64,000 nt of DNA, from positions 8,804,001 through 8,868,000 of the forward strand of contig JANJGN010000039.1 in assembly GCA_026770705.1 (NCBI GenBank), read 5' to 3'. The DNA comes from Isurus oxyrinchus (Eukaryota). Under the pieces are notes generated by a model. The model did not search any database. It had not been told where the DNA came from and saw only the letters and a program-made list of their open reading frames with translations. This document shows positions 1,850 through 44,913 of the stretch, in pieces. The position numbers were made by a program, and so were the translations under genes. The first letter of the stretch is position 1, and every line of letters starts with the position of its first letter.

Positions 1850-2780
1850 ATTGTGTTGCGTTTTGAATATGCTCCTTAGACAGCTCGATAAAATTGCAAT
1901 CTGTCATTGAGATATTTCCGGGCACTGCAGCATTCCTTTCATAATTTCCGTGTGGTTTCTGAGCCGTACAATTTGCAGCACAATGAAAAAGACACATCAA
2001 CGCTTTTTTTGAGTTCACTAGGCAATTTGTTTCTCCGTTTGGCAGTTCCACAAGCTTAAATCCACAGAAAAGTTTCAATCTAATCATTGTTTGGAAAGAC
2101 ACCGGCACTGCCCAATATTTTCACAGTTCCACTCCTCACTGGAATGTCTATCGTCTTCTTGGTGAATAATTCTGGCCAATTCGCTGAAACATATATTACT
2201 TCTTCAGTGGAAAGCGCGCCGGAAGAATTCTCTATTTCATCAGACTATGCACGGTTTGCACTAATGCGCACTTCCTGAGCCTTGGTTGTACACTCGCTGG
2301 AGTGCATTAATTCAATATTTTGCAGATTTGTCGAAAGACTTCTAAAATGTTTCTAGATTTCTGGAGAACATTTGAGGGTCTTATCATTCTCTGGTTCTTT
2401 TTCTGTCTTTGCTTCGCACCCAAGCAATATTTCCCCAATGCTCTCTCTCTCTCTGATCGTGCTACCCATTAAATCATAAATACGAATAGAGCCGCTCACT
2501 TGTGTCACTTAAACAGACGCCTTCAAACTTACCCAGATAGGAAAAGTCTCCTGCATTCACAGGTCACCCAGCGCAGTGCATATCCCACCCTCAAAGTGCG
2601 GTGCCAAGCCCGGTCGCCACAATTTTCCATACCCGAGGCACGGCTCTGTCTGTCATACTCTAACATCGAAGCACACGCACCTTGGTCCCTCCATTGTATC
2701 ACATTATTTGGGACAGTGACATTCCGTCTCAACTTCCCCTCACTACGCCTTCTGCCAAATGGTATTATTTTACAATGCAA
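1850..2780 (-). mobile_element. Highly decayed L1/Tx1-like RT remnant
   Basis: Manual translation gives fragments such as KLWRPGLAPHFEGGI and ANWPE..IPVRSGTVKILG, in the order expected for Tx1-clade RT motifs. Weak, by-eye similarity only. Confidence 0.35.
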
Positions 2781-2789
2781 TAAATTGCA

Positions 2790-3110
2790 TCTGCTATTTC
2801 TCTGCCTGTTCTGCTCTTCACTCCATGTCCTATTGCAACGGATTCATATCATTATCACTGGTAAACTTGCCCCCCCACCCCGCCTCCCACGCCATGTGTG
2901 CATCACGAACACATTTTGAAACGTTGTGCTGTTTTCCAAGATCCAACCGGTTTATATCGAGCAAAAATATAACAAACCCGGATTCGTGAGGAACACCACT
3001 GGCTTCCATCATCCAGAATGAAGCAAAACGTAAACAAACAGTTGCGGTTTTCTGTGCATTACCAAATTTGTTGTAATTGGAAAGCAACACCTCCCCCTCC
3101 AAGAACCCGC
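2790..3110 (-). mobile_element. CR1 RT fragment (duplicated at ~40440-40750)
   Basis: ORF 2830..3102 SGVPHESGFVIFLLDINRLDLG...VSKCVRDA resembles CR1 RT [22 protein letters not shown]...SKFADD. Confidence 0.7.
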
Positions 3111-3849
3111 GCCTCTTTCCTCTTTAATAAGCCTAAATGTTCTTAAGCAGCCTTATCTGTGATAAATTGCCAATTAATATCTCACAAAAGACTTCGCCAT
3201 TTATTCTCCCCATTAACCTCCTCTGCTATGATATCAAAACGGAACTAGCTTGTTCGAGCATGTTCTTATTTTAAGGCATTTTGATACAAACCAGTGATCA
3301 TGCATAATTAAACACAACATTCTCTAATTGCCGGGTAGACTCTTGGCAGTGAGCACAGGTTCATTTAGTCTTTTTAGCGCTGCAGCTGAACAGTGAGAGC
3401 AGAGATTTAGAGAGAGCGGCTAGTAGAGCACGAACAGATGATAATTTAATAAAGAGGGTGAGTTGAGGCGCCAGGGAAGAAATGGAAAAAATAGCGGGAT
3501 CTGAGCTGCCAGAGGAGACATTTAAAAAGAGCAAGAATTAGATAGTCAAAGCACAGATTAGAAATGGGCTTCTCCTCCATAACAATGTTAAAATAGTGTG
3601 AGCTAGATAATCAAAGCACAGATTGAAAAGTAAAAGGCGCTCTTACCCCAGAGCAGATATTTATACAAGTGTGGAAGCTAATTGCTAGAGCATAGTATTG
3701 TAAGAAGGACGAAGTATTGGGACGATAGTGCTTTGACTATAGTAGAACAGAGCTGTCAGCGTGGAGAAATGGTTAGCCTAGTAGTTGTGCAGCTAGAGAG
3801 GACAACGATAATTTATTGTTATTCATTAAGGGTGTTTTGGCGTCAATCG

Positions 3850-4770
3850 TTCGCGCAGCATTTATTGCCCTGATGTAGGTACGCTTGAGAAGGTGGTGGT
3901 GAGCTTCCTTCTTGAAACGCAGCAGTCCCTCTGCTAACCCTACACCCATAGTGCTGTTAGGGCGGGAGTTCCTGGAATTCGAAGCAACGGCAAGGAAGGA
4001 ACAGGGATATATTTTCAAATCAGGCTGGTGAGTAGCTTTGAGGATAACTTCCAGTTCGTTGTGTACCCGTGCACCTGCTGCCCATTATCCTTCTAGATGA
4101 TTCCGGTCGTGGGTTTGGACTCTACTGTCCACGGTGACTTCGAAAATTCCTTCATTGCACCTTGCAAATAGTACAAACTGCTGCTGTTGGTCGTTAGTGG
4201 TCGAAGGAGTCAACGTTTAACGGCTGATTTGTCCCAATGCTATCAGGCTTCCTGACTGCTATTGGACCTGCCCGCATCCAAGCAAGTGCAGAGTATACCA
4301 TCACAATCCTATCTTTTGCCTTGTAGATGTTGGAAAGGAATTGGGGTGTCAGGAGGTGTGTTACTCGCCGCAGGATTCCTTGCATCTGAACCGCATTTGT
4401 AGACGTTGTGTTTATATGGCCAATCCAGTTCTGTTTCTGGTCAATGATAACCGTAGCAATGCTGATAGTGTGACTTTCAGCGATGGTAATGCCATTGAAT
4501 GTTAACGGGCGATGGTTTGATTTTCTCTTTTGGAGTTAATCATTCCGGATACTTGCATGGTATGAATGTCCTTTGCCACTTGTCAGCCAAAACCTGAACA
4601 TGCTGCATTTGGCGATGGACAACCTCATTATGTCAGGAGTCACGAATTATGTTGACCATTGCGCAATCATCAGCGATCATCCCCATTTCCGACCATAAGA
4701 TGGAGTGAAGGGCAGTGATAATGGCGCTAAACATCGTTGAGACTCGGACACTTCCCTGAGGAACTCAGGT
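3850..4770 (-). mobile_element. 5'-truncated CR1/L2-group LINE 3' end (duplicated at ~41480-42410)
   Basis: The tail TTGCCC..CTTGAGAAGGTGGTGGTGAGC..CCTTCTTGAA recurs in the window (23390, 34290, 63535) and is followed by decayed RT-like sequence. Confidence 0.7.
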
Positions 4771-6348
4771 TCCCTCAGGAGCTCAAAGGACTGTGAGCTG
4801 ATCAGCCGGGTGAATATTTATAAAGTGCACGTGCCGAAAGGCCAGAGCAAACATTTAGAAAAGAGTGGTAGCTGAGCAAGCGGCGTGGGCATTTAGTAAT
4901 TCAGGCCCTAAGCATCCAGGGCAAAGATATCAGAAACACTGCAGCTGCTCGAAAAGACGGAGCACGTATGCATTGCTGTACGAGCAATTAAAGATTGGCA
5001 ATAGTTGTTTTTTCTTGCCAGTTATGCCCCTCATTGCATGACCGTATCCGTCTTGTCTTTAATGTTAATTTATTCAAGAGAAGCAGTTGTAGTTTGCTAT
5101 TTAATGCCACTTTAATTGGCGGTTGTTCCGGCCATTCATTTTACCTGGTGAGTAGGGTGGTTAATTAGGAATCGTCAAGGCGATTTTAAATTAATATCTG
5201 AGAAAAGCGAATGACCCACATAACAGGGAGAAGCCGGAGGAGTGCCTGCCGTCTGCAACTTCCTTCAAAGAGACAATAAGGAAAGGAGGGGCCAAATGAT
5301 CTGCTTCTGTGCTGTAGCCCATGACTGCATGCTAAAAAAGCATTGAAGTTAAGTAAATGATACGAATATGCGACGAGAAGAATTACATTTCGTTTTTTTC
5401 CACATTCAGTTTGCGTAGGTATAGATAGCAGGAAGTTGATGGTAGGGCAATGTGTGATCAGACTTTATTTGGATGGGAAAACGTGCAAATACCTGATTGA
5501 TGTGTCACTCGTTATATTGATGAGTGGATATCAAGTTAAACATTAAAACATTCGAGAATTATGATAACAGCCATTTGGTGGCTGTGTGTGTGAAAGGACC
5601 GGATAACATGAAACAGAGAGGGTTGTGAATGCACTTGTCGGGATGAAGCGGCCCCCGTAATCGTGGAAAGAACAAGTGTGAGCAATTTGCGCTTTCAACT
5701 GAATCGGAGGGAAATCGGATTTAAAAGTTTTGAATCCTAGATATGGAGCCGTCTCTCAGCCCTATGGATCAGGAGAATGACTGATCAATTGTGCCAATGC
5801 CCGTCGTTCCATAAAACACGTGATAACCAGGCCTTCCTTGTTTTAATCATGTCAGGTAAATGGAAATCTGAGAAGCAGCTCATTGTGCAACTGTCTGATA
5901 TTTGGAGGGTGCCAGACTTCATGAAGCATGTTCTGAAAATTCCCTCTATGTACTATTTGGCCAAGAACGTAGGTTGTACGTAATTTGTGGCGTTTCTCTA
6001 TGTTACATTTGTCGAGTTATCCTGATCCAGCTGGTGATGTTTTGTGTGTTGTACTGTTGATCAGAACAACTGTTCCAATGAACACAAGGCTGTCAGAACA
6101 TGGCATCACAATTCATTCTGTCAAACTCTGCAACGCTAAAAGGGGCTGTTCAGTATTTTTTTTATTATTAACACAATTGCAATTCACCATTGATTACAGT
6201 ATACTGTGAAAAGGAGTTCGATTTGACATTATATTATAAACGGAAATTCTTAACAGCATATTAATTTCTTAGGATATTAAACGTTGTTACAAGCGCTATT
6301 CTAACATGAGTTGTTTCAGGGTACAATGTTTATGTCCTCCTGTAAAGG

Positions 6349-7253
6349 TCAATGGGTTTTCAGCTGTGATTTGCATAATTTTACGCACAGTTTCACAAGA
6401 TACTTCATTCCGCTCCTCAGCTCCTCCCTAAACCTAGCCTGTGTCAGCACATAAATGAATGTATTTGTGCAGCAACTTAAGTCCCCTAGCATGAATCCAA
6501 CTGACTCAAGGTGATTTGCGCCAGAATTCGATGTAATTGTTACATGCAGAGAGATAAGATATATAACCGGAGTTGTCCAGAGCAATATAAAGCAGCCGGT
6601 TATACTGAAGAGTAAAATAATGGACTTTCTTCGGCTTTCTATTTCAGAGTCCGTGTGATCTTCTCCATTGCTGCAACTGCGGAGACCCCTGCGAATGTTA
6701 CTGGCTGCCAAAATATGTCTAGCCGTCAAAACATTTAGCAACAAGATTAGAATGAATGGAACACATGGTTTCAAGGTAAGGGTAAAAAAGGCAAATGCGG
6801 CCCATTCATCAGAAATGAAAAATGTCTGTTTTAGGACACAACCACGATTTACATTGTCCATTATTTCTGCAGGTTCAAGCGCAAAGTACCAGGGAATATT
6901 TATAAAAAAACTCAACATGCTCACCACTGATATGACAGCTACTGCTGTTGTCTCCGTGGAATATTTTTTTCGTAGCTTCTTACAACATATAACCACAAAA
7001 CGATCGAAGGTGAACATCACTGTTAACCAGAGAGACGCTGATGTGACTACATTGATCAGTGTCACATTTAGCTGGCACAGCGTGCTCATGGTCAAGAATG
7101 AAACAGCGAAATAAATATCCAGTGTATTCTTCAGTATGACTTCAGCACAAACAACCAGGAGATCTGCCATGGCCATGGCGATCATATAGTGGGTAATACA
7201 TTTGGAGAGGCCACACTTTCTTCGGGAAAGAATCACAATCGCAACCACATTAA
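6349..7253 (-). CDS. GPR139/GPR142-like class A GPCR, coding exon 2 (TM1 end to stop)
   Basis: Open frame with seven-TM pattern: NVVAIVILSR..CGLSKC, MAMADLLV, FTFDRFVVICC, NIPWYF, PCVPF, RRKSIILL, LSCCTNTFIY. Acceptor CTCTTCTCTTACAG at 7254+ follows a pyrimidine tract, phase 1. TGA at 6349-6351. Confidence 0.92.
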
Positions 7254-10200
7254 CTGTAAGAGAAGGACAGAGAAAGCAGGAGATTGATGACACAGAAGAA
7301 CTTTATTAATTTTCTTCCTGTTGTAGCAAAGGATTGTGCATTTGACCCAAATATGCCACAGTTAGCTTTCCAAGGTGAACATGTTCTAAATGTAAACTGG
7401 ACCTACTGAAAGTGCTTAGGGAAGAGAAACATTAGATGATAATTCGTCTTTTGGAATGAAAATCATCAATGTAGACTGGACAACTATTGTACAGTAAAGA
7501 TTGAGATTGCTGAGGGCGAATTTGACCCGAACAATTTGACTGCACACAAACGGCTTGGCATGGTGAATATTAAAAGGAAAATGGGTGGTGTAAAAATTCA
7601 ATTCATGTGTGTTGGTGCAAAGTGAAATGTGAAAGGAATGCACAACATAGAATCTGGGCCAAGTAAAATTATACTCCAGAAGAGGTAGACATGCATTTCG
7701 TGCTGGGCAGTCTATAGATGCGATAGGCACTGGGAAGGATTACTGTACTACAGGACTTACAGTTTGAAGATTAAATATTGCCCAGGGACACGAACATACC
7801 GTGAATGCAAGTGAAAGCAAAGATGGAAAGGTAAAAAAAAGCAGGAACATATAAGGCCACTGAGCTACATAAAAGACCAGCATAGATGAGGCCAAATGCA
7901 AGTTTTCACAAGCGTCATCACAGTGGCAGTACAATTTGAATCAATACAAGGTGACATTCTTAAGCAGGTTCCCAGTGAGAAGTTTTATTTGAGGATGAGA
8001 GCTGATTAGTCCAGTGTCTTAAGTCAGGCTGAGTAACGTGAGATTGATATGCTGGCTGGGCATTGTGCAGGATTATTTCAGATGAACACATTGCTAATGC
8101 ATTGCAGAAAATGTGAAGCAACATTGCTATGCAGAATGGGTACAGTCAGTGCTGATCAAGAGGGCAGTATAATGGCAGACTGGGACCGGTGACATGCTAT
8201 CAGATTGAGTGAGCAATAGTTATTGGCCATAGGGGCACATTTCTTGCAAAGCATAGTGAATGAGCAATTCGAAGATGTGCTTCTCGTGAGGACATAACTA
8301 GCATTTTGCTTCCGAGTAGGCCGGACAGAGTTCCCATTAATTGAACGGCTGCAGAACAAATCACTTTGTTGTGGAAAGGGCAGAAGGGAATCGTTTGTCT
8401 TTCAAGGACAGCATCAGTGATTTGAAAGGTGAAGCTGAAAATTTAATTTTGCTTGGCACCAAGTACAGAAGATCGTGGTAAAGATTGACTGTGATGGGCA
8501 CATCGATTTCAGTCTGTAGACTAATATGTGTTCAGAAAGGTGAAATTACAAGTTGTCGATTACCTGACGATAAAGACCTAGCACCTAACACATCCATGTT
8601 TAAATTAATATCCTCTAAAGCTTACTTCATTTCAGATTGGCCAGGCTCATAAAGTCCATGAATTTTAGCATTTGTTCATAAAATGCATGTTTCTTTTTTT
8701 TTTCCAAAATGCAGGAACCTTTTCAGAGAATTAGCGAAGTGATTCACTGCTGAATCACTATACAGAAGATTAACTTCAGACATTTATACTGATTACTGAT
8801 GAAAATAAGTGATCTATATAAGTCAAATGAAATTGACCTGAGACTCAGATAATCACGGTTGCATTATGATTCTGTTGTCTACTTAGTAAAGGTCCAGTTG
8901 AATTTTTAAGAACGGATTTGCTAAGTGAATCTCACTGAACGAATTTGTAGCTGCCAGATATGTAATAACTTGATGCACACGTTTATTAAATTACTTTTCT
9001 GCATTTCAAAGCACTTTAAATACCTCCAGCCTGAATTATTATCGAATGTAGGTAATCAGCACATTGCCGAAATTTTGTTTGTACTTCTGGTGGCGATGAT
9101 AGAGGATAAGATTCATGGCTCTGGAAAGGGTGCAGAATAGGTTTCCGACTGAAGACTCCGGTGAGATTCGGGAGACACAGATTAGGAAAGAAGATAATGC
9201 ACATTCTCAAAATAATGGGATGAATAGATATAGAGTTATTTCAAGTACCAGCTGTTCTCAAGGCTATGCAATATGGTTGCAGACTGAACGTAGACTTTTC
9301 GCAAAATTGAACTTAGGGAAACAAAAATGCATTGATGTCTATAAACAGGGTGGTGAAGTAACAGTTTGGATCATATTATTTCAGTAAGTTGTTCGTTAAT
9401 AATTCAGATGAACTCTAAATGAAGTAAGGCGAATTAGCCGGATAAAGATAAACAGTTTTTAACATTTCTGAATCAGATTGCAAGTTGGCAAGCTTTGACC
9501 ACAAAAAAAAAATCTATTCGTGTTACATACACAACCCAGTTTGGTAGCCTCCTGTTGACAATTCTCTAACTCGAATGCAAGCAGCAAACATTGATTGTCT
9601 TAATGGAGCTGTCAATGATAATCACAAACAGCCTTGGAAACGCCAGGTAATGGATAAAAAATAAAGTTTGAGTTTCTGTTGACCATGTAGGATTCACTGG
9701 AAAAGGTGGAAACATTATTAATCAAAGCTAGTTTGACACAATTGCAGCTGAAAATAAATAACAAAATAAAACAACTTAAAATAAATAACAAAAATGAAAA
9801 TTGAACTTCATTTACCCGATAACATTTACCCGAAATAATTAACTATGTGCTATTGTGAGTGATGATAAGATGGTTAGCCAAAATATCCTCATTTGAAACT
9901 GTACTGGTCAGCACTGTAAATAAGGAAACAATGTAAACAGTGCAGTAATTTAAACAATTATATATTGAAGCAACGAATGTTTGGACAAATTAATTTTCAA
10001 AACAATTATCCAATAAATTATCATTATATTCCAAGAATATTCCTCCGAATTAAACATTGAAATGCCCAAGGAATGAACTAACCATTATCTACCGAATGAA
10101 ATAGTCCCCAATCCAAAAGATTATCCACTACTTAGCTAGCAAATTAATTATACAGACATGAAATATATTATCAACATTATTCCCTGCTAAATAAACTAGA

Positions 10201-10704
10201 GATATGAACATGTATACATGCTATAGAATCATCCATTGCTCCCTGCAAATGCAGTCTGCTTCTGACCTGTTATTGACTTGCTGTTTGGGAAAGGAAAATG
10301 GAGCAGGTGCAGTGCACTTTGGTTTATGTGCCTCTTGGTTTGGTTACTGTAACCATCCGAGTCTGAAGAACTGCAGAGCGGTGAAGTTTCCTCCACGGTC
10401 CCAAATCCATATCACTTGAACAACAATGATCTATTCGCAATGTAAGTACAAAATAACAATTTCCTATGGCATCTTTTGCATGCAAAACAGAAACTTAAGG
10501 GCTAATTCTTTTCAGTGGATATCTGAATGTTGTGGAGAACGCAATACCGAGTGTGATTCACTGAACTGTGGTTTTGGTTCTGACGCATTGTTGAGGGTCG
10601 GTAGCAGCATTTACACTAGAGAAGTGACACACATCCTCCGGTGCAGGTTCAAAACGCTAATCCCGATTTTGGATCATAAAGAAACATTACATTAAGTAGA
10701 CAGC

Positions 10705-11486
10705 GGCCTGGATTTTACATTATTCGGCAGCGTGAAATTAGAGAAATGTAAAATTAGCACTTTTCCTACTCAGCCTCCCTTAGACCATCTCCCGCCCCAC
10801 AATTCATTAAATTCCCTCGGGGAGGAGGCAATGAGGGAGCCAAAATGGGGTCCGCGTCCAATCGGCAGTGAAAGCCTGAACATCGTGCGGCAGAATGTAA
10901 TGCAGTGAACAGAAAGTCGATATGGCTGCAAGCTCAAGACCACCTGGTCTCAGAAACTGTTCTTGCAAAACTATTTTTCGTTGGAAACTCAGGCAAGAAA
11001 CAAAACAGAGAAAAGTAGACATGAAGGCAGCACAATCCCACCTTCCCCAGCACAATCTGTTGCTACATTTAATCATCGTCCCGGAGGCAGAAGGTCTCTT
11101 CCGCGCGATTGTCGTCAGATGGTAGCTGCCGGAAACTTTTTTTTCTCTCGTCTGGGCCACGGTAAGTGCAAGTCACGAATGAATAAAAGATGCCATTGTG
11201 TCATTGACAAACTCAATAACTTGCTCATTAGCAACTTTTAAAAGGTGGGCCCTCCCGTTCTCCATCTGCAACTGGGAGATTCAGGTACGTGACGACATTA
11301 TACCCGATGCACGTCATTGATCTTCGTGCGTATTCGGCATTTTTGAGGTGGGTGGGTGATGGAGGTGAGAGTTCTGGGGGAGTCAGGCGGTGGGAGGGGG
11401 GGGGGGGGGTTGGGTGGGTGGGGGGTAGTGGGGGGGGGTGGGGGGGTGAGGGGGAGGGGTGCGAGTTTCGGTCGAAATTTCCAGCC
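10705..11486. mobile_element. Putative non-autonomous DNA transposon/MITE with G-rich tract (duplicated ~48877-49586)
   Basis: Imperfect terminal inverted repeats GGCCTGGATTTT ... AAATTTCCAGCC bound a GC-richer block within an AT-rich intron. Confidence 0.4.
11350..11460 (+). repeat. G-run tract, potential G-quadruplex
   Basis: More than ten runs of 3 or more G within ~110 bp. Confidence 0.8.
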
Positions 11487-12519
11487 AATCCTTTTGCTTA
11501 AATATTTAGATATTTAGAAGTGAATTCAAAACATACGTTCTCAGTTTGGGACCAGTGTTCTCCAAAATAATTTACATTTAAATATGCATTTTGTAGTTAA
11601 TCTTTGTTGAGCCGGAACAAAAGAATCTTCCGGGCCATCATTTCAATAGAAAAAGGACATCAACATTCATAGATTCTTCACCATGCAACATTTTATTTTC
11701 TTTGCTTATATTGTCAAGATTAGCACTTTTATTTCCTTTTGCACTAATTCTTCTTGACAGTAACGGTTTTAAAGTGTTGCAGTCCATGTGAAGTGGATAC
11801 AAACACAATGCTACGAGTGACGATTTCCAGGTTTTTGGTCCAGTGACAGTCAGGGAACGGTGATTTATCTCCAAATCAGAGTGGTGTGTGACTTGGAAAG
11901 GATTTTATAATTAAGTGTGTTCTCCTGCCTCTCCTGCTCTTGCCGTTCCAGGCTTTCGAGGTCAAATGCACAAACGAAGGAACTTTGCTAACATCTGTCA
12001 TATGTCTCAGCAGCAGCGATCATGCATAACAACACGGCTTATCCTGGTGAATTGTAAGACAGGAAAACAAACAGGTGCAAAAACCTAATTGAATTCGCTC
12101 TACCAACCTACACGCCACATAGACATGTGTCCATTCAATGATGGATATGATTGACCAGGGCACGGTCCTCGTGCAGACGAATTCCACCTTCACATTGGGG
12201 CTTCCCTCAATCGTTTTGTGTGAGACAACCATTGTGCTAAATGGGGTCGGTTTCACCTTGATCAAAAACTCAAAAGTGCACATTCACGACGCACTGTGGA
12301 CCATTGGCTGGAGCTGATTTGTGCACAACCATAAGTTGTAAACCCAAGCCCAATGTATCCCCGACTCTACAATTTTCATGTGAGCTCTTTATGCTGATGT
12401 TTGTGGTGCTGGTCAAGCATTCTACTTTGCTGCTTTGGTGTAGATTTCATTACGTATGTTGTAACTCTGCGACAAGGAATGTTCAACAGATTACCTCTTG
12501 GATTACTGGTATTTAGCTG

Positions 12520-12960
12520 GGATTGTCCTATGTGGAGACATTGACGACCCTCGTCCTCTGCTTTCTGGCGCCCTGGTAAATGAGAAATTATCTCACTGAA
12601 GCATTCACCGTTCTTATACGTTTCGGTGGTGTAGATCTTGCATGGATGTTTCCCCTGGTGGGTGTGTCTAAAACCAGGAAAAACAATATCAGAACAAGAG
12701 GACTGCATTTACAAATGAGATGAGGATAATTGCATCACTCAGGGAGCGATAAATGATCGAAATTATGTCCTGCACCCTCGGCAGATGGGCAGTCACTGAG
12801 TATATTGAAGGCGCCTATGAACTGATTTCTCAATATTCAATGCATCCGAAGATATGAGATATTGCATGGAATGTCGTGAAGGCATTATTTCAGCCGGGAT
12901 ATACTTGACTTGCGGCCAAGTGACCAACTTCTACTCGGATTTCCTATGCTTCTATGTCTT
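12520..12960 (+). mobile_element. CR1 3' end fragment (duplicated ~52585-53045)
   Basis: Decayed form of the CR1 ORF2 C-terminus (LFSLE.RR.RGDLIE..KI) and 3' UTR seen in better-preserved copies at 19725-20620 and 25665-26190. Confidence 0.65.
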
Positions 12961-14126
12961 TCTGCCAGTGCCACCATTTAGTGTGACAATATGATTTTCC
13001 CAAAGCCAAAGGGGAGTCCGACAATGCTTACTATAAATTCACTCCAATTCTGAATGTAAATTAGTTAGAAGAGGAAGCAGGTTTTACAACAACAGGAAGT
13101 GGAGGGCGAGGAATTGAAATGTGCACAATAAGGAGAACCAGATAACTACTCGAGAAGCACAGGTGTTCCGAAATCGGGCCACGTATGTTTCAGTTAGCAA
13201 TCTGCGTGCTGAGATAGATGTTTGACTACTTACGCCCGGCGTCAGTACTTGAGAACAGAATTCTCGGCTAATGCTCTATTGCCGTGGTGAAGTAATTCTG
13301 CACCATCGGACGTAATAACTTTCGGAACAGATGTCAAATCGATTGAAAGTGTAAACGTGCAAGAACGCTTGCGACTATTTCCTCGTACAACATTGTCGTA
13401 GCCACTTGTGTCCTGCTAAAGCCTACAAAAAATATCATCTGGTCATTGTCAACTTGCTGCTTGTGGAAGCTTCCGGACCAAAAATTGCCTGCCACCTTTT
13501 GCGTTACTTCAGTGACTACACTTCATGTAAATTCATTATTAGAATTATTCGATAGAATTCATTATTCGATATTGGAGAGTGTAGAAATGCATGCATTTCA
13601 ATAGACAAGTGACGAAGACATCGGAATGTCTTCAGCACACATAGTAATCTGTTTCACCCAGATTTCCAGATATCCTCTCTGTATACAGATTTGTAAAAGC
13701 ATCGCTGTGGTAAGATGTATGTGATTTGACAGGGATTCCGTTCCTTTAAATATTGGAAGATGGATGAAAATAATTAGCAACGGCTTCAAGTATTTCAAGC
13801 AGAATTTTGCAGAATGCGAATTTGCTTCTGCACAGATTTTTCACAGTTTGTGTTTTCTACAAATTCAAACTCGGTTTGCACTTGATAATGATAATTATTG
13901 CAGAGCCGACCCTGTTATATGACATTCTGTAAAGCAAGAATAAGTTGTCAGCAGTGGAGACCACGGAGAGTAAGAGAGAGCAACAGCAAGACCGTGTTAA
14001 CATTATGGTTAAACATACATCCCTGCTTTGACGACTTTCCAACTGTAAATAAATGATTCCATGTTATCGGAACCGGCGTTTGAGAACATCCATTTATTCG
14101 GGTAATGATTGTATTTAGGCTCTTAC

Positions 14127-14196
14127 CAGGAACACCAATAGCCGCGAGAATAGGATAGTAAATGGCTTCTATCTGCCGAAGTATCAGTTCTCCCAT
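14127..14196 (-). CDS. GPR139/GPR142-like GPCR, coding exon 1 (MGELILRQIEAIYYPILAAIGVP)
   Basis: ATG at 14196 (alternative in-frame ATG at 14202). 70 nt ending CCTG|GTAAGA, phase 1. Splicing to 7253 gives GVP-V-NVVAIV, completing TM1. Total 324 aa; intron 7254-14126. Confidence 0.88.
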
Positions 14197-16129
14197 CTTC
14201 ATGTGGAGATGTCTTTCCTGCAGAGATGGATGCACAACATGGAATGAACGTGTGAGCTGAAAGGTAGAAATCCTCTTCTTCTTTAAATTCATTTCAGGAA
14301 AATAAGAGAAACACGTCAAAATCACAGGCGATTCGGAAGGAGTTGCCAAATTAATTAATCTGCAGCACCAGGGTAAAACTGGCGCGACAGCATTCGTAGC
14401 AGGGAACAGAGAAAATCTGTTAACTGTGGATAACATGAAGCCCTTTATTTAAGTAATCATACTCACGGCCGCTACGATCTAGAAAGACAAAGGGAAAATA
14501 ATCATGGGAATGCCACATGCTGAAGGTTCCTCTCCCAGCCACTCATCGCCCTGGTTCGGAAAAATATCGCCGTTTCTTCACTGTCTCCATGTCAAGTTAA
14601 AGGACCACAAACCCCCAACCCCTGCTAATAATAACGTGAATGTAACAACACCACAAAGACCGCAGCAGCTCACCACCCACTTCACAAGGGGAATTATAGT
14701 TGGGCAATAAATGCTGGCCTTGCCAACGTTGCCCTCATTGATGAATTGAAAGAAGGACAGAAATTTATATTGTTCATCCGAGGGCATGTTAGTAAACGTA
14801 CATCGGAAAACGAGAGCTTCGAAAATGGGTTTGTAAATGGCCCGTATCTGATGAAGTACAGCAAATTATATCTTCGGTGAGAAGCGCTAACTCTTGTTGA
14901 AACAGATACACCAGCCTGTTGGAAAAGATGAAATGTGACATTCAGAGGAACTGTTAAGTAGACAGCAGCTAAATCGCCAGGAGGGCATTCATGTCCCCTA
15001 AAGAAATCAATTAGTTTCAGTCATTGAACAAACAGGTTACGTCAGTTGCTCTCCTTCTGAAATGAACCGTTTCGAAGTGAAACGGCCAACATTGGAATAC
15101 AATTGAAGGGGCTATATTTTAATGATCAACGGGTAGATCCCATAGTGGATAGTCACGGCGGGAAATGATTGACCCACAGGGCGATGCTGGGAATCAAATC
15201 GTTACTAATTTATATCAAAATGATTCGAGAAAACTCAATCAGCCTGAACCGCCACGAGAAGAAGTGGGGCACTTGTAAATGTTCATCACTGTTTTGTGAT
15301 TCCGGACCAAGTCTTTGCTGAAACTGGGCACATGTCTGATGGATGTCTTTCTCATTAAATCTTCCAGAGCGAACTCATACGCTGCCCAGATCTTTCCGTG
15401 GATTCCTTGGGCACTGACATTTCGGTCAGATTCTTGGCCTACATTGTGGGTGGTTGCACATAAATTTGCACCATTCTGCCTGGAAATTATAAACGTAACC
15501 ATAGGACCGGGAAGGCTGGTGTTGGTGGTGACCTGATGAGCAATAGAAATTGTATGCAGTAGGCTTTTCTTTTCTCAACCAAAATATTTCAAAATAATGT
15601 GTTGAAGACAATCCGACCCCATACCCCCTCAGTAACGATTCCCCACGCCATGCAATGCTCCTGCTCAACCTCTCACATACTCCATCCAGAGAGATGGTTG
15701 ACATGAATGAAAAAACCTTTTTTTTGTAATAGAAGAATGGGATATATAGACTACATTGCTCGGAGGCTCTTCCACTCTTAACATTTAACTCTTAACCGTC
15801 AAACGTCTTCTGCAGACAATCATTAGCACATGGATGCACTGATTACAATGAACCCGAATCGACGGCGCCTCCGGCTTTGGTGTGGTCTGCATTTCAAACA
15901 CCCACCAAAACCAGTGTATTTAATGGCAGTTGGTCATTCGGCCCCTTGAGCATGTTCTGCAACTCGGAAAACTCATGGTTTATCAGATCGTGGCCTCAGC
16001 CCCGCTCTCCGCCAATCAGCGTCTTCCGCCGGCCCTTTCCGCCACTTTCCGCACATCACACACTTAAACGCTCATGAGCCTACTCTCCCTTATTGGTCAA
16101 TAAACTTTTCAACTCAGCCAATATTATGC

Positions 16130-17670
16130 GACAGAACTGAACAGACGATCAGTGTAATTCTCTCTTTTTGCAAAGTGGGTCGTCAATGTGAACCTATTTC
16201 ATGTCACTTGCGGCGCCAAATAAGGCTGTTTAATACACTTTAATGTGCAACCCAGCTCTGTTTTTCATACATTTGTCAGTCATTCTCCAAGCATGCGGTC
16301 AAAGCGCTTGACACAGGATTACACATATATTTCAGGACCACAGGCAGCCTTTCCAAAGAGCCAAAATTAAATCCTTGCACAGAGGTTACTGGAAAGCTAC
16401 AGAGGAATGTCTTATTCGCGGACCAATGCACACTCATAGCTCAGGATCCGGAGACATTCAGCTGCGTGCTGAGCGCTTTGCTGCAAACTCAGAATGTCTT
16501 CGATTGACAATATATCTGAGGATAGAGATGCTGCATCAAATCGTTGCTGGTCACGTGCTCCAAGATACCACAGTCGCTTTGAACAACGCACTCCTCTGTT
16601 CTTTACGGAAGTTTTGCTAACTTGGCAGCATGCAATCCAAAAACACTAACTGGATGGGAAAATTTCCCATCGCCTGACAAAAACTAGCTCGGCATTTGGC
16701 AAGCTTCACTCACTGACTTCTGCAAATAAAACACGGATTTTCCCGCAGATGGAAGATCAAGGCCTGCCAGGCAGTGTTTTTTTATATCACTTTCATATCA
16801 GCGCGAGACTTGCGTAACCTTTCGGCCTCTTAGAAAGTTCATGAAAACTTTACAACTTCACTGCCCGTAAAACATTTCCAACGGTTCTTGGCAATGCAAA
16901 ATCCGCAAAACCGATAATCTTGCAAAGTGCAGCATGACTGACAGCGAAAATATATTCATTACAGCCCCGGTTCCCGGAGTAGGTCATGCGGTTCATCTGG
17001 AAAATGCCTACGTACCAAACGCCACACTCGGTGAGCACAGGATGTCTGAAATCTCAAGGCCAAACTCAGAGATTGCAAGCTGGATCACAGTAAATGGATT
17101 CCTGATGCGACCTTGCTAAAAACAACGCGGTGTGCCTGCACCATATGAAGCATACTCCCGGAGCACCGGAATTCTGGTACTAAAATGGGGGGTTCACAGG
17201 CCGGCTTCTGGCGAAAAGCCCTGTGGGGATGGAGGATTGGGGAAAGGGGCAAGACTGTGTTGGCCCCCAGTCAAAATCCTGCACAAATGCGGCAGATCTG
17301 TGGCAGTCAATGGGCACATTTTTCAGGAAAGGGGTGCCTTTCCGTACCTGCCTCTGTCACTTACCATTACTCGTCCAAAGGGCGGCCAAAGAGAAAGGTG
17401 TAAGGCTGCACTGCAGGTCTCCGTAAAGCACTGAGGCCTTAACAACAGGGCACGGGAGGAGAATGCTGCCAGTCTCTCAGCCTGGCACCAAACTGTCCAT
17501 CAAATCGAAAAACACTTCGAGGCTCAAAAGAGTGTTGAAAAGGCCGAGGCACAGGAAGGAAAAGTGAACCGTCCTAGGCCTTTAATTTCCAAAAGTTAGT
17601 GCTAAAAACCAGTCCCACGGCGGAAGAACATATTTGTCCTGAGTTGGAATCCTCAGTCATCTGAAATCAC
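16130..17670 (+). mobile_element. Degenerate RTE-clade LINE RT and 3' region
   Basis: Decayed RTE motifs: ALDTGLHIYFRTTGSL, EVTGKLQRNVLFAD, RPKGGQRERCKAALQVSVK. The paralogous ORF 56345..56698 reads similarly. Confidence 0.7.
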
Positions 17671-19724: not shown

Positions 19725-20620
19725 CACAGAATCACAGAACCAGGAAGCGCAGAAAAGGCACTTCAGCCTATCGAGTCTGCACCGACACGTGAGAAACACC
19801 TGACTTTCCACCTAATCACATTTGCCACCATTTGGCCCATAGTCAAGAATGTTATGACGTGCCTGGTGCTCATCCAGTTACTTTTTAAAGGATGTGAGGC
19901 AACCCGCATACAACATCTTCCCAGGCAGCATCTTCCAGACCTTCACCACCCTCTGGGTAAAAAGGATTTCCTCGCATCCCCCCTAAACCTCCTGCCCAGC
20001 ATTTTGAAATTTTGTCCCCTCAAGACTGACCCTTCTAATAAGGGGAACAGCTGCTCCCTATCCAGCCTGTCCACGCCCCTCATAAACTTGTACACCTCTT
20101 TCAGGTCACCCCTCAGTCTTCTCTGCTCCAACGAAAACAACCCAACTCTATCCAACCTCTCTTCACAACTTAATTGTTTCATCCCAGGCAACATCCTGAT
20201 GAATATCCTCAGCACCCCCTGCAGTGCAATCACATCCTTCCTATAATGTGTCGACCAGAACTGCAAACAATACTCCAGCTGTGGCCTCAACAAGGTTCTA
20301 AACAACTTCAGCATTACCACCCTACTTTCGTAATCTCTGCCTCGATTGATAAGTGCAAGTGTCCCATATGTCCTTTTCCCCACCCCACTAACATGCCCTC
20401 CATCTTCAGAGATATATGGACACAGATGCCAACGTCCATTTTTTCTCAGAACCTCCTAGTGCCATGCCATTCATTGAATACTTCCTCGTCAAATTGCTCC
20501 TTCCAAAGTGTATCACCTCACATTTTTCAGGGTTAAATACCATCACCCACTTATCTGCCCATTTGATCATCCCATCTATATCTTCCTGTTGACCAAGACA
20601 CTAAACCTCACGATTAACCA
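19725..20620 (-). mobile_element. CR1 LINE 3' end (ORF2 C-terminus plus 3' UTR)
   Basis: ORF 19943..20383 LVRP-like LLRPQLEYCLQFWS...LFSLEQRRLRGDLKEVYKFMRG, typical of CR1. Confidence 0.92.
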
Positions 20621-21120
20621 ACAAGCTAACGATAAATGGTTAAGATGCACAACAACTTGGTGAAAGGAGTAATGTTCAAGCAGTGCCTTGAAGGAGGGGA
20701 GCGAGTTAGAGAGGCAATGGAGGTAAATACCGGAGCTTGAGGCATAGGTAACTAACTAAAGGTACTGTCATGACAGTTGGGGCAATTCTGCTCGGGAACG
20801 CACAAAAGACCAGATTGTGACCAGCGCTGATAACTTGGAGAATCATGGGGCTGTGGGTAATTGCAAGAAAGAATGAGAATTGAAAAGTCAATATGGTCCT
20901 CGATGATTAGCAATTTCGTAATAGTGATTACAGCAAGGACAATTGAACTTAAATGCATTGAGACCCAACTATTTTCACGCACTATTAAATATTCCAATCA
21001 AGTCAGAACAGCATGTTGCATTGGAAGTTTCTATATGTGACTCAATCAGTCAGTTGAGGGTCTCTGCCTCTGCTACCCTTTTGCACAGCGAGTTCCTGAC
21101 TCCAAGTACCCGCGGTTTTT

Positions 21121-21175
21121 CTTGAAATCCAAAGCGGGGTTTCCCCACATGGTTCGAATCCTACCGACTATTCCA
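21121..21175 (+). other. tRNA-Ser(UGA) 3'-half copy with CCA, forming an extended PBS of the adjacent LTR
   Basis: CTTGAAATCCAaagcGGGGTTTCCCCacatGGTTCGAATCCTaCCGACTAttCCA vs vertebrate tRNA-Ser CTTGAAATCCATTGGGGTTTCCCCGCGCAGGTTCGAATCCTGCCGACTACG-CCA (recalled). It lies 3 nt from the LTR end. Confidence 0.85.
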
Positions 21176-21178
21176 ATC

Positions 21179-21713
21179 TGTTGTCACTTTGACAACCCGA
21201 CCACAGGGGCCTCAGGTACAGGTCACGAACGTTTATTCCAGCAATTGCAAGGGGAGAGTCATCTCAATACAGCTTGAGATCACACTCTGCTAAATTACAA
21301 GCGTTCAACATATTTATACATTATTGGTCACGTACAAGAACAGTTTCCAGATTCCCATCTCGTCACTATATCCGTTTACATTAAACAGGCATCTCTGGTA
21401 ACAGGTACATTCATCGCATGTCCCTATTTTTACCCAGGCAGAGACCTTCCGTCCTACCTAAACTAGGACCATCCGTCCTTCCCCTATCTGTTGAAGAGCA
21501 CAATTACTCTATGTCTTAGCCATCCTTTGACTGCAGTGTGGCTCCTGAGGCCTTTCTGTTGGTAACAGGCCCTAAGCCTGAGCAAAGTTCATCTGGTAAT
21601 CTTTAAGTGTTAATATACATGATAGCACTGGCTGCCTGGAGATATAAAGTAATTAATTCCTTTTCAATAAATTTTCCCTTACCATAAATTCTTACTTAAT
21701 TTCTTCCCCAACA
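21179..21713 (-). mobile_element. LTR (535 bp) of an ERV/LTR retrotransposon, 5' LTR with PBS, internal region lost
   Basis: TGTTG...CAACA termini. On the minus strand, TATAAATA (~21311-21318) precedes AATAAA (21232-21237), and a TGG-starting PBS lies just downstream. Confidence 0.8.
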
Positions 21714-22030
21714 CACTCTCTGCTCTAAAATTCCTAACAACCCCGTTAAACCCAATTCCCCTAGTCACTGGTTGAAGTAAATAGGTCCGTCACATCCATT
21801 CGATCCAGGCTGCTCACAATTCTGTATATTTCAATGTAATCTCCCCTCAGCCTCCTCTCTTGCAAGAAGAACGACTCCAGCCTATCCAGTCTTTCTTCAT
21901 TGTTGCAATTGTCCAGGTCTGGAAATATCCTCGTTATATTTCCTCTGTACCATGCCTAATGGAATTGCATCTTTTCTGTAAAGAGGTTACCAGAAATGCA
22001 CACAATACTCAAGTCACAACTAATGAACGT
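21714..22030 (-). mobile_element. CR1 3' fragment abutting the LTR
   Basis: ATCTCCCCTCAGCCTCCTCT...CCAGCCTATCCAGTCT is homologous to the CR1 copy at ~20100-20170. Confidence 0.65.
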
Positions 22031-22249
22031 TTCATAGCCCTAGTACCTTGAAGACACGCTCGCTGATATAAATTTAATTTTTTAAATATAAATTACTTAC
22101 AGCCCAGCCGACATCTCCAAATGTATTTGATGTCGTCAACTGGGGACATTGTGTCTGATTATCCGGTTTTCTTACTGTTCATTTTGCATGGACTGCAGAG
22201 AGTAAGCAGTCAGGTTGATTCGCCACAAACCGTTATTTGACTCATTTCC

Positions 22250-22860
22250 ATAATGCTCACTGGACTGGCAGAATTCCCTTTGTCCCCTTCCATTCCCCTT
22301 GCATATCATCCAACGGACTCTACATGCCCGCAAAACAGGACGCGTGCTCCTGATAATTGGCCGCATCAATTCAAGTCTGAGCACTCTCTTGGACTAAGGT
22401 TCACCAAGGAGCATTGCCTATTAGTGGATGCATTTGAATCGCTTCCTCACACACTTAGGCACTCCTCCATTTTCTGCATGCCATGATGCCCCTTCAGGAA
22501 TTCACCACAAAATCAGCCCAGGCACAGCTATCTTCGACTCTACAGTGCTCCTTGCAAACTGCCTGTTCTCCCAACCCGTGAGAAATGGACTGTTGCTTTA
22601 TCAAACTCATTCAGACACCTCCAGTGGAGGTTTTAAAGCAGTGGGGATGATCGTTTCCTTCCAGTATTCTAAGTTCTATTCCGATTTAAAAAGTACATCT
22701 GGGACCTGGTTCTCGCCCGACGGGTCTCTGACCTTCCCTTCTCATGGTCTCTGCACAGATTGTTAACCTTTACGCCTTGGTAATGCTCGATAATGTTGGA
22801 GTTCATCAAGGGCGCTATTATCGCTTACTTCCATGTGGCTGCTTACACAACAGGTTCTGT
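22250..22860 (+). mobile_element. Possible decayed Tx1/L1 ORF2 C-terminal region
   Basis: Fragments RFLTHLG..ACH, VLLANCLFSQPV and QIVNL..ALGNAR loosely match the Tx1 C-terminal Cys/His region. Weak. Confidence 0.3.
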
Positions 22861-23923
22861 GGTGCTCTGTTACAAAAGACATTGAAATTGCTGTCCCGTC
22901 CTAGCAGTGAAATGAAATTTCATTAAAATTTCACTGAAATTAATTTGCCCCAACTCCAACAGTACAATTCACCGTGACTCTACAACATGCCAGTTCACCG
23001 TCCCAAACCATTTTGTCCCTTTTTTGTGTGTGTGTGTGCAAGTGTTGTTGTCAAAAACATCTAATTAAAACTTGGCTTTTTCTGAACAGTTCCAGAAGCA
23101 TCTGCTATTGTCTATGCTTTCACAATCTAAGGCAGACATTCTGACTGAGCTCCAGTTTTGGTTCATTTCTAAATAACGTGGCTTCTTGCCTTCACTTGCT
23201 TTATCAGGAATATCCTAGGATCAAGACTGATAATTTGCATCACGGAATTAAGAGAAGACGAAGTACTTTGTGTTGTCTAGGGACTGTGTGTTATAAAAAA
23301 AAACAGTAAAACCAGCCCAGAACATTTGCCGTCAATATTGTTTTTTTCATTCATTCAGGGTATGTGGGCTTCGCTGTGTCGGCACAACATTTATTGCCCA
23401 TCTCTAGTTGCCCTTGAGAAGGTGGTGGTGAGCTGCCTTCTTGAACCGTTGCACTCCCGGTGGTGTGGTGTTTAGGAGGGAGTTCCAGGTTTTTGACCCA
23501 ATGATAGTGAAGGAACGGCCGATATATTTCCCAGTCAGGATGGTGAGTGACTTGGAGGGGAACTTCCAGGTGCCGGTGTTCCCATCTATCTGCTGCCCTT
23601 GTCCTTCTAGATGGTAGTTCTCGTGGGTTTAGCCTTTATCATGTGGCCGTTAAGACCGCCAGGTCAGGCAGCCAAGAGGAAAATCGTGGAAGAAATTTTA
23701 AACGCTGGCCGTTTAACATCCCCTGCTACTGATTTTATTAAGTTGTTCGGAAAAAATGTCCAATGGATTCTGTTAGGGTGCACGATTTTACACTGGCTAA
23801 GGGGCGTTTAGCACACAATCAGCTGGGAAGAATTTCCAAAGCTATTGATGTACTTAATTACATTAACACGCACATGGTTGTGTATTTAATCTTACACATG
23901 TTCAACGTTTTATTGCTCTCCAG

Positions 23924-40018: not shown

Positions 40019-43000
40019 TTTCCGGAGAATATTTCAAGGTCTTATCATTCTCTCATTATTTTTTCTGTCTTTTCTTTGCATCCAAGCAATATTGTCCCCA
40101 TTTCCTTTGTCTCTGCTCATGCTAGCCATTGAATCCTGAATACAAATAGGGCCGCTCATTTGTGTCACTTAAACAGTCTCCTTCAAACTTACCCAGATAG
40201 GAATGGCCACCCCCTTTCACAGGTCACTGCAGCGCAGTCCCTATCTGCCCTCAATGTGCGGTGCCAGGCCCGGTCGCCACAATTTTCCAAACCCGAGGCA
40301 CGGCTCTGTCTGCTTTACTCTTACATCGAAGCACATGCACCTTGGTACCTCCATTCTATCACACTCTTTGGGACAGTGACATTCCATCTCTATTTCCCCT
40401 CACTACCACTTGTGCCAAATTCTATTATTTTCATTGCAATACATTAAATTGCATCTGCTAATCCACTGCACATTCTGGTCGTCTCTCTATGTACAATTGC
40501 AACGGATTCGTATCATCCTCACATGTTTAACTCCCACCATGTCTGCATCACTAACACTTTTTGAGACGTTGTGCTGTAATCCAACATTCAACTGGTATAT
40601 GTCGACCAAAAATAAAACAAACCCGGATTCCTTTGGAACGCCAACGGCTACCATCATCCAGACTGATGGAAAACGATAATAAACTGTTCCTGTTTTCTGT
40701 GCATTACTGCAATTGATGCAATTGGAAAGCGACTCCTCCCCCTCCCACAATTCGCGTCTCTGTCATTTTTAATGAGCGTAAATGTTCTTAAGCAGCCTTA
40801 TCTGCGATTAGTTGTGAATTAATATCTCAAAGTCCACTTCACTAATTCATTAATTTTCTCTGTTGTGATATCAAAATGCAGGTAGTTTGTGCAAGCATAT
40901 TCTTATTTTAAGGCATGGTGTTACAAACTATTGACCATTCTTAATTAAGCTCAACTGTCTCTAATTCCCGGCTAGACTCTTGGCAGTCAGGGCAGGTTAA
41001 AGTATTCGTTTAATGCTGCAGTTGAAGAGTTAGAGCAGAGATTTAGAGAGAGTGGGGAGCTGATCACGAACAGGTGATTTTTATTTAAAAAAAGAGGAGT
41101 AGTTGAGTTGCTAGGGCAGAAAGGTAAAAGAGCGGGAGCTGAGCTGCCAGAGGAGAGATTTAAAAAGAGCTACAGCGAGATATTCAAAGTGCGGATTAGA
41201 AAGTCACTGCTCTCCCATAACAGATTTAAAAATATTGGGAGCGAGATAGTCAAAACACAGATAGGAAAGTAAAAGGCGCTCTTCTCCCAAAGCAGAGATT
41301 AATAAAAGTAAGGAAGCTGAATAGGTAGAGCATAGCTTTATAAGAAGCAGGAAGTATTGTCTAGGACATTGATTTTGCTGCAGTACAACAGAGCTGTCAG
41401 ACTGGGAAGCGCAGTATCTGTGCAGCCACAGAGACAATACTTATTTATTATTATTGATTAAGGGGGTTTTAGCATCAATCGTTCGCACAACATTCATTGC
41501 CCAGACGTAAGTACCCTTGAGAATATGGTGGTGAGCTCCCTTCTTGAATCACAGCAGGTAACCGTACAGCCAATATGCTCATAAGCAGGGAGATCCTGGA
41601 ATTTGACCCAACTACAATGATGGAACAGGGATATCTTTCCAAACAGGCTGGTGTGTAGCTTGGAGGGGAACATCCAAATCGTTGTTTTCCCATGTATCTG
41701 CTGCCCATTATTCTTCTAGATGGTTCCGGTCGTGAGTTTGGACTGTAATGTCAAAGGTTACTTTGGAAATTCAGGCAGTGCACCTTTCAGTTAAAACACA
41801 CTGCTTCTATTGTTCATCGGTTGTGGAGGGAGTCAACTTTTATTGAGTTGGTGTCAATCTACAGCTGATTTATCCCAGAAGCTGACGTGCATCTTGGATG
41901 CTTTGCAGCTATACGCACCCAATCAAGTGGGGAGTATTTCATCACAATCCTATCATCTGTGTTGTAGATGGTGGAATGGAATTGGGGAGTCAGGAGGTGT
42001 GTTACTCGCCGCAGGATTCCTTGCCTCTGAACTGCAATTGTAGACGTTCTGTTTATATGGCCAATCCAGTTCTGTTTCTGGTCATTGATTAGCGTTACAA
42101 TGCTGTTAGTGCGACTTTCGGCGATGGTAGTGCCATTGAATGCTGATGGTCGATGGTTTGATTTTCTCTTTTGGAGATATTCATTGTCTGGTACTTGTAT
42201 GGTGTCAATGTCCTTTCCCTCTCCTCAGCCAAAGCCTGAACATGCTGCATTTGGCCATGGACAACCTTATTATCTCAGGAGTGACGAACTGAGTTGAGCA
42301 TTGCGTAATCATCAGCGAACATCCCCATTTCCAACCTTAAGGTGGAGAGAAGATCATTGTTGATGGAGCTAAACATCGTTGTGTCTTGGACATTACCTTG
42401 AGGAACTGATGTTCCCTCAGGAACTAAAATGACTTGGAGCTGAGCAGTCGAGATGTATATTTAGAAAGTGCACGTGCCTAAAAGAAAGAGCAAAGATTTA
42501 GAAAAGAATTGTAGCTGAGCTGGTGGTGTGGGCATTTAGTAATTCAGGCCCTAAGCAGACTGTGTGAAGATGTCAGAAAATGGGTAGCTACTCAAAACGA
42601 CGGATCACATATGGTTTTCTGTAAGAGTAATTAAAGATTGGCAATAATTGTTTTTCTTGACAACTATGCCCCTCATGCCATGACCTAACCTGTCGTCTTT
42701 TTAATGTTCATTTATTCAAGGACAGTGGTTGTAGTTTTCTATTTAATGCCAATTTAATTGGCAGTTTTTCTGGACAATCATTTTACCGGGTGGTTAGGGT
42801 GGTGAATTAGGAATCGTCAAGACGTAATTGTATTAATATCTTTGAAAAGCGAATGACCCACATAACAGGGAGAAGCCGGATAGTGACTGCCGGCTGCATC
42901 TTCCTTAAGAGAGACAATAAGGAAAGGAGGGGCCAAATGATCTGCTTCTGTGCTGTAGACTGTATATGGTTGCATTCTATGCACGGCATTTAAGTTCAGT

Positions 43001-43159
43001 AAATTATAAGAATATGCGACGAGAAGAATTACATTATAATTTTTCACATTCAATATGCGTAGGTATACAGGGAAGGAATTTAATGTTGGGGCCATGTGTA
43101 GTCAGACGTTTCTTGGCTGGGAATTCTTGCAGATACCTGGTTGAAGCGTCACTCGCTAT

Positions 43160-43197
43160 ATCAAGTCATACATATGGAATCAAGTCATACATATGGA
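43160..43197 (+). repeat. 19-bp perfect tandem duplication ATCAAGTCATACATATGGA x2
   Basis: Read directly; not duplicated in unit A. Confidence 0.9.
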
Positions 43198-44009
43198 AAT
43201 ATTCGAGAATTATGATAACAGCCATTTGGTGTGTGTGTGTGTGTGAAAAGACCGGATAACATGGAACAGAGAGTGTTGTGAATGAGCATGTGGGGAGGAG
43301 ATAGCCTCAGCAATCGTGAAAAAAACAAGTATGAGCAATTTGCGCTTTCAAATGAATCGGAGGGAAATCGGATTTTAAAGTTCAGAATCCAATACATGGA
43401 GTCGGCTTTCAGCCCATTGGATCATGTTAATGAGTGATCAATTGTGCCACTGCCCGTCCTTTCCCAAATCACGTGATGACCAGGCCTTCCTTATTTCAAT
43501 CATGTGAGGAAATGGAAATCTGAGAAGCAGCTCATTGCGCAACTGTTCAATATTTGGAGGGTGCCAGACTTCGTGAAACATGTTCTGAAAATTCCCTCTA
43601 TGTACCAATTGCCCCAGAATAGACGTTGTAGAAAATTTGCCATGTTTGTCTAAGTTGCATTTGTCGACTTGTCGTGATCCAGCTGCTGATGCTTGGGTTT
43701 TCCCTTGTTGATCAGAACAACTGTTGCAATGAACACAAGGCTGTAAAAACCTGGCATCACAATTCATCCTTTCAAACTCTGCAACACTAACAGGAGCTGT
43801 TCAGTATTATTATTATTATTTATTATTATTATTGTTATCACAACTTACAATTCACCATTGAATAGTGTGTACTATCAAAAAGAGTTCATTATATTTTAAC
43901 AGAGCATTTTAAGTTGGATACCTTTTTTAGTAGGATATTAAACGTTGGTACAAGCGTTATTCTAACATGAGTTGTTTCAGGGCACAATGTTTATGTCCGC
44001 CTGTAAAGG

Positions 44010-44913
44010 TCAATGGGTTTTGAGGTGTAAATTGCATAGTTTTGCGCTCAGTTTCACAAGGTACTGCCTTCCGCTCTTCAGCTCCACCCTAAACCTAGCC
44101 TGTGTCAGCACATAAATGAATGCATTTGTGCAGCAACTGAGGTCCCCTAGCATGAATCCAACTGACTTAAGATCATTTGCGTCAGAATTTGAAGTGATTG
44201 CTACATGCAGAGAGATAATATATATAACAGGAGTTGTTCAGGGCAATATATAGCTGTCAGTTATACAGAGGAGTAAAATAATGGACTATCTTCGGATTTC
44301 AATTTCACAGTCCTTGTGGTGTTCTCCATTACTGCAACCGATGAGAGCTCTGCAAATTTTACTGTCTGCCAAAATACGTCTCACCGTCAAAACATTTAGC
44401 AACAAGATTAGAATGAAAGGAACACATGGGGTCAAGGTAAGGTTAAAAAATTCAAATGCGGCCCATTCAGCGGAAATGAAAAATGTCTCTATTAGGACAC
44501 AACCACGATTTACATTGTCCATTATCTACACAGGTTCATACGCAAAGTACCGTGGAATGTTTATCAAAAATCTCAAAACACTCACCACTGTTATGACAGC
44601 TACCGCTGTTGTTTCAGTGCAATATTTTTTCGCAGTTTCTTACAACATATGGCCACAAAACGATTGAAGGGAAACACCACTGTTGACCACACAGAGGCTG
44701 ATGGGACTACATAAATCAGTGTTATAGATAGATGGCACACTGTGCCCATGGTCAAGAACAAAACACGAAAATACATATCCAGCGTATTCTTCAGAATGAC
44801 TTCAGCACAAACAACCAGGAGATCCGACACGGCAATGGCGATCATATAGTGGGTAATACATTTGGAGAGGCCACACTTTCCTCGGGAAAGGATCACAATC
44901 GCAACAAAATTAA
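44010..44913 (-). pseudogene. GPR139-like GPCR pseudogene, exon 2
   Basis: 904 vs 905 nt in copy A: 1-bp loss in an A7 run (44625-44630). AAG->TAG at 44286-44288. DRF->NRF. Acceptor and terminal TGA are retained. Confidence 0.88.

Follow-up and report, generated by a model that had tools for sequence, protein, structure and literature searches.

The window, a 64,000-nucleotide stretch of Isurus oxyrinchus DNA, carries an LTR whose primer-binding site runs far beyond the usual length and then passes directly into the LINE that hosts the insertion. The parts of this locus are as follows.

21714..22014, minus strand: host LINE on the U3 side, in register with the other flank; no 4-5 bp target-site duplication
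21179..21713, minus strand: LTR of 535 bp with TG...CA ends, belonging to an abundant family of env-bearing LTR elements; 84-87% identity to dispersed copies
21176..21178, minus strand: 3-nt spacer between the LTR end and the primer site, of the length seen in family members
21158..21175, minus strand: canonical primer-binding site for tRNA-Ser, 18 nt long and opening with the CCA complement; the alignment of family copies reaches exactly 21158
21124..21157, minus strand: over-extension complementary to tRNA-Ser from A58 as far back as G35, taking in the T arm, the variable arm, the anticodon stem and A37
21121..21123, minus strand: ambiguous junction bases, either tRNA positions 34-32 or the next three bases of the host LINE
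21052..21120, minus strand: 3' region of the host LINE, resuming past the insertion; five bases away from the junction, 9-10 nt are deleted

Positions 21121-21175 correspond to the 3' portion of tRNA-Ser, which begins here in the anticodon loop and closes with an encoded CCA at 21173-21175. Read on the minus strand, the order is LTR (21713 to 21179), 3 nt, and the tRNA-Ser complement from its CCA end (21175 to 21121). Because the LTR lies on this strand, the tRNA copy is the primer-binding site of the LTR. Alignment of 21121-21172 with the host tRNA-Ser gene L087 gives matches in 42 of 54 columns. The best local score of the copy against 28 distinct host Ser gene sequences is 67, as compared to a maximum of 34 among 1000 shuffles scored against 10 of those 28 sequences. 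These data confirm the tRNA-Ser copy with an encoded CCA, 3 nt from the LTR end, that an earlier note had read from this DNA. None of the sampled host Ser genes encodes CCA, which makes a mature tRNA the template. The tRNA-derived part measures 52-55 nt, the range reflecting the three junction bases that also fit the host LINE. A 2-nt insertion near tRNA positions 43-44 is common to the window copy and its paralogue L045. In keeping with a half tRNA that has decayed, ARAGORN detects no tRNA gene within the window and Rfam yields no match in 20000-23000.

With 1092 first-look candidates, tRNA-Ser genes are numerous in the genome, a circumstance that favors an unrelated tRNA retrocopy, or the head of a SINE, lying beside a solo LTR. 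However, the tRNA 5' half or SINE body upstream of 21121, which the earlier note had itself raised as grounds for abandoning its reading, was looked for and is not there (local score 14); the DNA at that position is LINE, and the tRNA copy has no poly(A) tail. The copy is moreover of the isotype used as primer by the family, starts at CCA, is oriented as a primer site with exactly 3 nt between it and the LTR end, and shows this placement twice independently, the second case being described below. This geometry largely refutes a chance neighbor, which we regard as very unlikely.

The two flanks are parts of one LINE 3' region, joined in register, and the U3 end of the LTR is intact. The LINE resumes within 0-3 bases of the point at which the U3-side flank stops. 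A target-site duplication of 4 or 5 bp is absent at the window copy. The window has no second copy of the LTR, no internal region adjoins the LTR, and no internal element remnant lies beyond the tRNA copy at the junction. The search for an empty orthologous or paralogous site gave none, and the target sequence was therefore reconstructed by comparison with further LINE copies that are about 70-86% alike. The DNA past the tRNA copy was also compared with the family leader; the match was reached by 0-20 of 1000 shuffles for the window but by 513-787 of 1000 for paralogue L045, and the candidate was rejected, this DNA being host LINE.

The arrangement of LTR, 3-nt spacer and tRNA complement beginning at CCA is the geometry that plus-strand strong-stop DNA has. 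The long primer site is, in our judgment, most probably the fossil of one failed reverse-transcription event, the product of which likely entered a germ-line LINE. Plus-strand synthesis probably overran its usual stop at A58 of the tRNA and continued into the anticodon loop, on a tRNA whose A58 would have been under-methylated or bypassed. Because an over-long 3' end would be unable to pair with the minus-strand primer site, second-strand transfer would have failed. Clean joining of the U3 end would probably be the work of integrase, and the tRNA end would have been attached by host repair via 1-3 shared bases. The overall event would be a one-ended insertion of strong-stop DNA that was completed by host repair. 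Repair that was untidy would fit the 9-10 nt missing five bases away from the junction, although this loss is undatable. The long site in the window has no function and is a dead record.

The same overrun could also have been followed by transfer to a downstream site, producing a defective provirus with two LTRs from which everything past the tRNA copy was later deleted. This route is published for HIV-1, the second event described below looks like such a transfer, and a later deletion would remove the target-site duplication as well. However, the LINE resumes so close to the stop of the U3-side flank that the deletion must have ended both at the tRNA copy and at the original target, and the missing internal remnant also speaks against it. 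We consider this history improbable.

The LTR at 21179-21713 is a repeated sequence, as the earlier note had assumed. A search of about 5 Gb of host genome returned 1968 first-look candidates; the best 40 were scored, and the identities of the window LTR listed above come from its comparison with dispersed copies. Family members with two LTRs span about 6.5-8 kb, and the LTR pairs are 93% alike in the two members compared. Target-site duplications of solo LTRs were tabulated in 22 family rows, one of which (L049) is really a 3' LTR; a 4-bp duplication is perfect in 11 rows and has at most one mismatch in 17, and a 5-bp duplication is exact in 2. Most of these rows have the duplication, expected of a normal integrase product, that the window copy lacks. 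Family elements show a weak match to the integrase core and an env-like frame with an RXKR-type site. The four elements scanned contain no reverse transcriptase of the family's own, the only one found lying in inserted DNA of L043, and RNase H was likewise not found in the family's own sequence. Atlas features of the env-like frame reach 0.94 for Baculo_F and 0.91 for Fusion_gly, at a recognition value of 1844, which is under the guide of 2300; neither a Pfam fusion match nor a PDB match was obtained. The env sequence resembles F-type fusion proteins no more than weakly. Searching with the env query gave 1314 first-look candidates, of which the best 150 were scored.

The closest described elements are the lokiretroviruses (Wang and Han, PMC7947760) and the F-type env-bearing Ty3/gypsy elements (bioRxiv 10.1101/2023.10.26.564294). 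The window family may be compared with them for its LTRs, its weak match to the integrase core and its RXKR-bearing env-like frame, the last with a weak likeness to F-type fusion proteins. Without a reverse transcriptase or RNase H of its own among the sequences found, the family is not placeable in either group, and its members (L041-L049, L208) are possibly non-autonomous relatives of lokiretroviruses or env-bearing gypsy elements. The abstract of PMC7947760 names no cartilaginous fishes as lokiretrovirus hosts.

Primer sites were classified in 93 rows of LTR 3' ends from the fetched loci. In 53 rows a Ser site of 18 nt gives way to the family leader, 32 rows have no site, 6 have a long site, and 2 have a special arrangement, classed as primer site only, namely L133 (a normal site with a leader deletion) and L148. 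The six long rows reduce to two events, two of the rows being offset duplicates. This check, run on the flanks of the family LTRs, supports the one-off read-through that the earlier note had offered as one of its two readings. Its other reading, a long primer site throughout the family, is rejected, because 53 of the 61 rows with a primer site have 18 nt and then pass directly into family internal sequence. Long sites are thus rare, with two events versus 53 normal rows; since the sample was targeted at primer sites, this is not a genome-wide rate, and the number of long sites is a lower bound. A search with the normal junction of LTR and primer site gave 639 first-look candidates, the best 40 of which were scored.

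The window-type site occurs in five copies. Four lie on C39 (G000:C39 8718751, 8825060, 10501072 and 10616938), include the window copy, and share 3.4 kb at 98-99%. The fifth, on C48 (2501339), shares their flanks at 86-89%. The C39 region consists of recent segmental duplicates (98-99%) in both orientations, and the LTR of the older paralogue has lost about 290 bp. Because kilobases of flank are shared, the five copies are read as segmental duplicates of one insertion. Contigs of a second organism carry both types of window paralogue, and record 11 of X12 spans the LINE, the tRNA copy and the LTR. It is therefore likely that both the insertion and the first of its duplications predate the split from this second organism.

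The second event, L044 on C21, consists of an LTR, a spacer, the complement of tRNA-Ser(CGA), a 17-nt linker and an inverted LTR, and it sits inside a LINE. The feature is given below.

L044 4121-5347 (G000:C21, about 91066120-91067346): head-on inverted LTR pair, arms 84% alike

A single sequencing contig runs through the long site and the linker and some way into both LTR arms; contigs of the second organism do not cover the linker, which carries no weight either way. The target-site duplication of L044 is decayed, with 3 of 5 bases matching over 5 bp. The linker resembles an internal site of the family and overlaps the tRNA copy by 3 nt. The match is modest: 6 of 300 shuffles reach its score on L047, and 98 of 300 on L208, where the alignment stops before the site. 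The polypurine tract was tried as a source of the linker and is not among its best matches; an internal site fits better. Given the 3-nt overlap, the tRNA part of L044 ends at 34-31. Its two outward U3 ends would make L044 a normal substrate for integrase. L044 differs from the window event in anticodon, junction and structure, and it is a second over-extension, independent of the first.

The near agreement of the two long sites in their tRNA endpoint would also be expected of an evolved subfamily whose long primer site pairs with a 3' tRNA half. The window LTR is farther from the family (84-87%) than L046 is from most copies (about 87-94%), which makes an old, unsampled subfamily conceivable. 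However, the five window-type copies are segmental duplicates, the two events are unlike, and the family leader follows neither long site. Targeted DNA searches gave no third long-site event among the best candidates scored (at most 40 each), a depth at which decayed copies are missed; a pattern search for long sites returned five matches, the four C39 copies and L044; and contigs of the organism itself, aligned on the window junction, showed just the two known types. We regard an evolved subfamily with a long site as very unlikely.

Another junction of the family is aberrant in a different place. In L148 1010-2365 / L206 (G000:C35, from about 5176600), the LTR and an 18-19 nt primer site are joined to the reversed internal region at the polypurine tract. 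The far end of L148 is truncated, and an inverted LTR was not found there. L148 is a third aberrant junction, a failed plus-strand transfer with a near-normal primer site.

The end of the tRNA copy is an interval rather than a point. The LINE has AGG at the junction in 27 of 30 copies, and both types of window paralogue have AAG; the tRNA complement of positions 34, 33 and 32 is AAG for a UGA primer with C32. Because the junction bases fit either tRNA or LINE, G35 is the last certain tRNA base and the first base of the anticodon is uncertain. The earlier note had named tRNA-Ser(UGA) as the source; the Ser identity is confirmed, whereas the assignment to the UGA isoacceptor rests on the ambiguous junction bases. 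The note had also described a match that stops abruptly at C32. Such a halt is compatible with the interval of 35-32, but the abrupt stop is not a measured endpoint, since bases 21121-21123 also fit the host LINE. Assumed mutation rates, with no prior and no penalty for target loss, give rough likelihoods of 0.43, 0.40, 0.04 and 0.12 for an end at 32, 33, 34 and 35.

The interval for the window copy (35-32) and that for L044 (34-31) overlap at 34-32. We estimate that tRNA ends distributed uniformly would give an interval of this width that includes position 33 in about 6-10% of cases, which counts as one independent test (n = 1). The two overlapping ends are modest evidence for a preferred stop, which a modified base and a cleavage within the loop would explain equally. 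Reverse transcription is arrested by m3C, or miscodes at it, and Ser tRNAs of human cells carry m3C32, according to PMC7969016. Plus-strand synthesis halts one base before m1A58, as described in PMC8599865, and by analogy a block at m3C32 predicts an end at 33. The earlier note's proposal of a halt at m3C32 is thus upheld insofar as position 33 lies inside the allowed range, but such a block would end the copy at 33 and not at 32.

A block at m3C32 is a cause of the stop to which we give slightly less than an even chance. Another pause, or trimming during repair, is possible at a lower level of confidence, and run-off from a cleaved 3' tRNA half is a little more doubtful still. The comparison with host tRNA-Ser genes recommended in the earlier note bears out the Ser identity; for position 32 it speaks against such a block, with C32 in 4 of 59 sampled Ser gene calls and in 0 of 5 TGA calls, though from queries that favored T32 genes and so biased the sample. 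In most sampled tRNA-Ser copies position 32 is T, not C, and m3C32 would be impossible in them. The tRNA-Ser genes are numerous (L072-L100 and L212-L241, on C26, C38, C42 and others) and often belong to repeated units in which a tRNA-Glu gene lies about 1.3 kb away.

Position 43 of the tRNA is A in both long copies (window 21131-21134; L044 4741-4743) and T in nearly all host genes sampled. None of the 28 Ser gene sequences is an isodecoder that has A at 43 or the 2-nt insertion. The A at 43 and the 2-nt insertion of the window copy may derive from a lost isodecoder or from a copying slip beside position 44.

Over-extension of this kind is known from HIV-1. Hardy et al. 2025 (PMC12657518) report 44 HIV-1 sequences with 7-54 nt of extra primer tRNA past the 18-nt site and ascribes them to read-through of m1A58. 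Defective proviruses with tRNA-Lys3 inserts, attributed there to deferred second-strand transfer, have the same order of LTR end, 18-nt site and further tRNA as the window. However, the HIV-1 cases are somatic and recent and rejoin downstream viral sequence, whereas the window copy is germ-line and old, derives from tRNA-Ser and joins a LINE directly. L044 rejoins an inverted LTR, unlike the HIV-1 cases, and the overlap at its linker corresponds to the mis-transfer described for HIV-1 in PMC12657518.

Strong-stop products made by read-through of m1A58 end at modified bases farther on, of which one lies in the anticodon loop (PMC13191261, PMC8599865 by Fukuda et al. 2021, and PMC11251516). Without m1A58, the over-extended HIV-1 strong-stop products P3-P5 fail in strand transfer, according to the first two of these. 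P5 is described there as stopping at ms2t6A37 of tRNA-Lys3, whereas the window copy passed A37 and ends at 35-32.

The read-through mechanism is therefore already known from HIV-1; what is new is a germ-line example, a Ser primer and two routes of rescue, by direct joining to host DNA and by an inverted LTR pair. Our literature search found no paper on germ-line fossils of over-extended primer sites, in a coverage that lacks most subscription journals. On the interpretation favored here, a read-through error of the HIV-1 type entered a vertebrate's germ line on no fewer than two occasions within a single element family. A single copy teaches little, but many fossils with shared endpoints would map past in vivo blocks to reverse transcriptase on primer tRNAs. 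Tentatively, over-extended primer sites may end at positions set by modification, at 33 for Ser or Thr primers with m3C32 and at 38 where a blocking base occupies 37. If so, genome assemblies would preserve datable traces of how tRNAs were modified, and of lapses in m1A58, in ancient germ cells.

Elsewhere in the window, a 317-aa open frame (6349-7302, minus strand) looks like a rhodopsin-type GPCR exon, with a possible likeness to GPR139-like receptors; a broken paralogue lies at 43926-45088. The window also contains a duplication of about 15 kb at about 80%, 2358-17155 versus 40019-57194.
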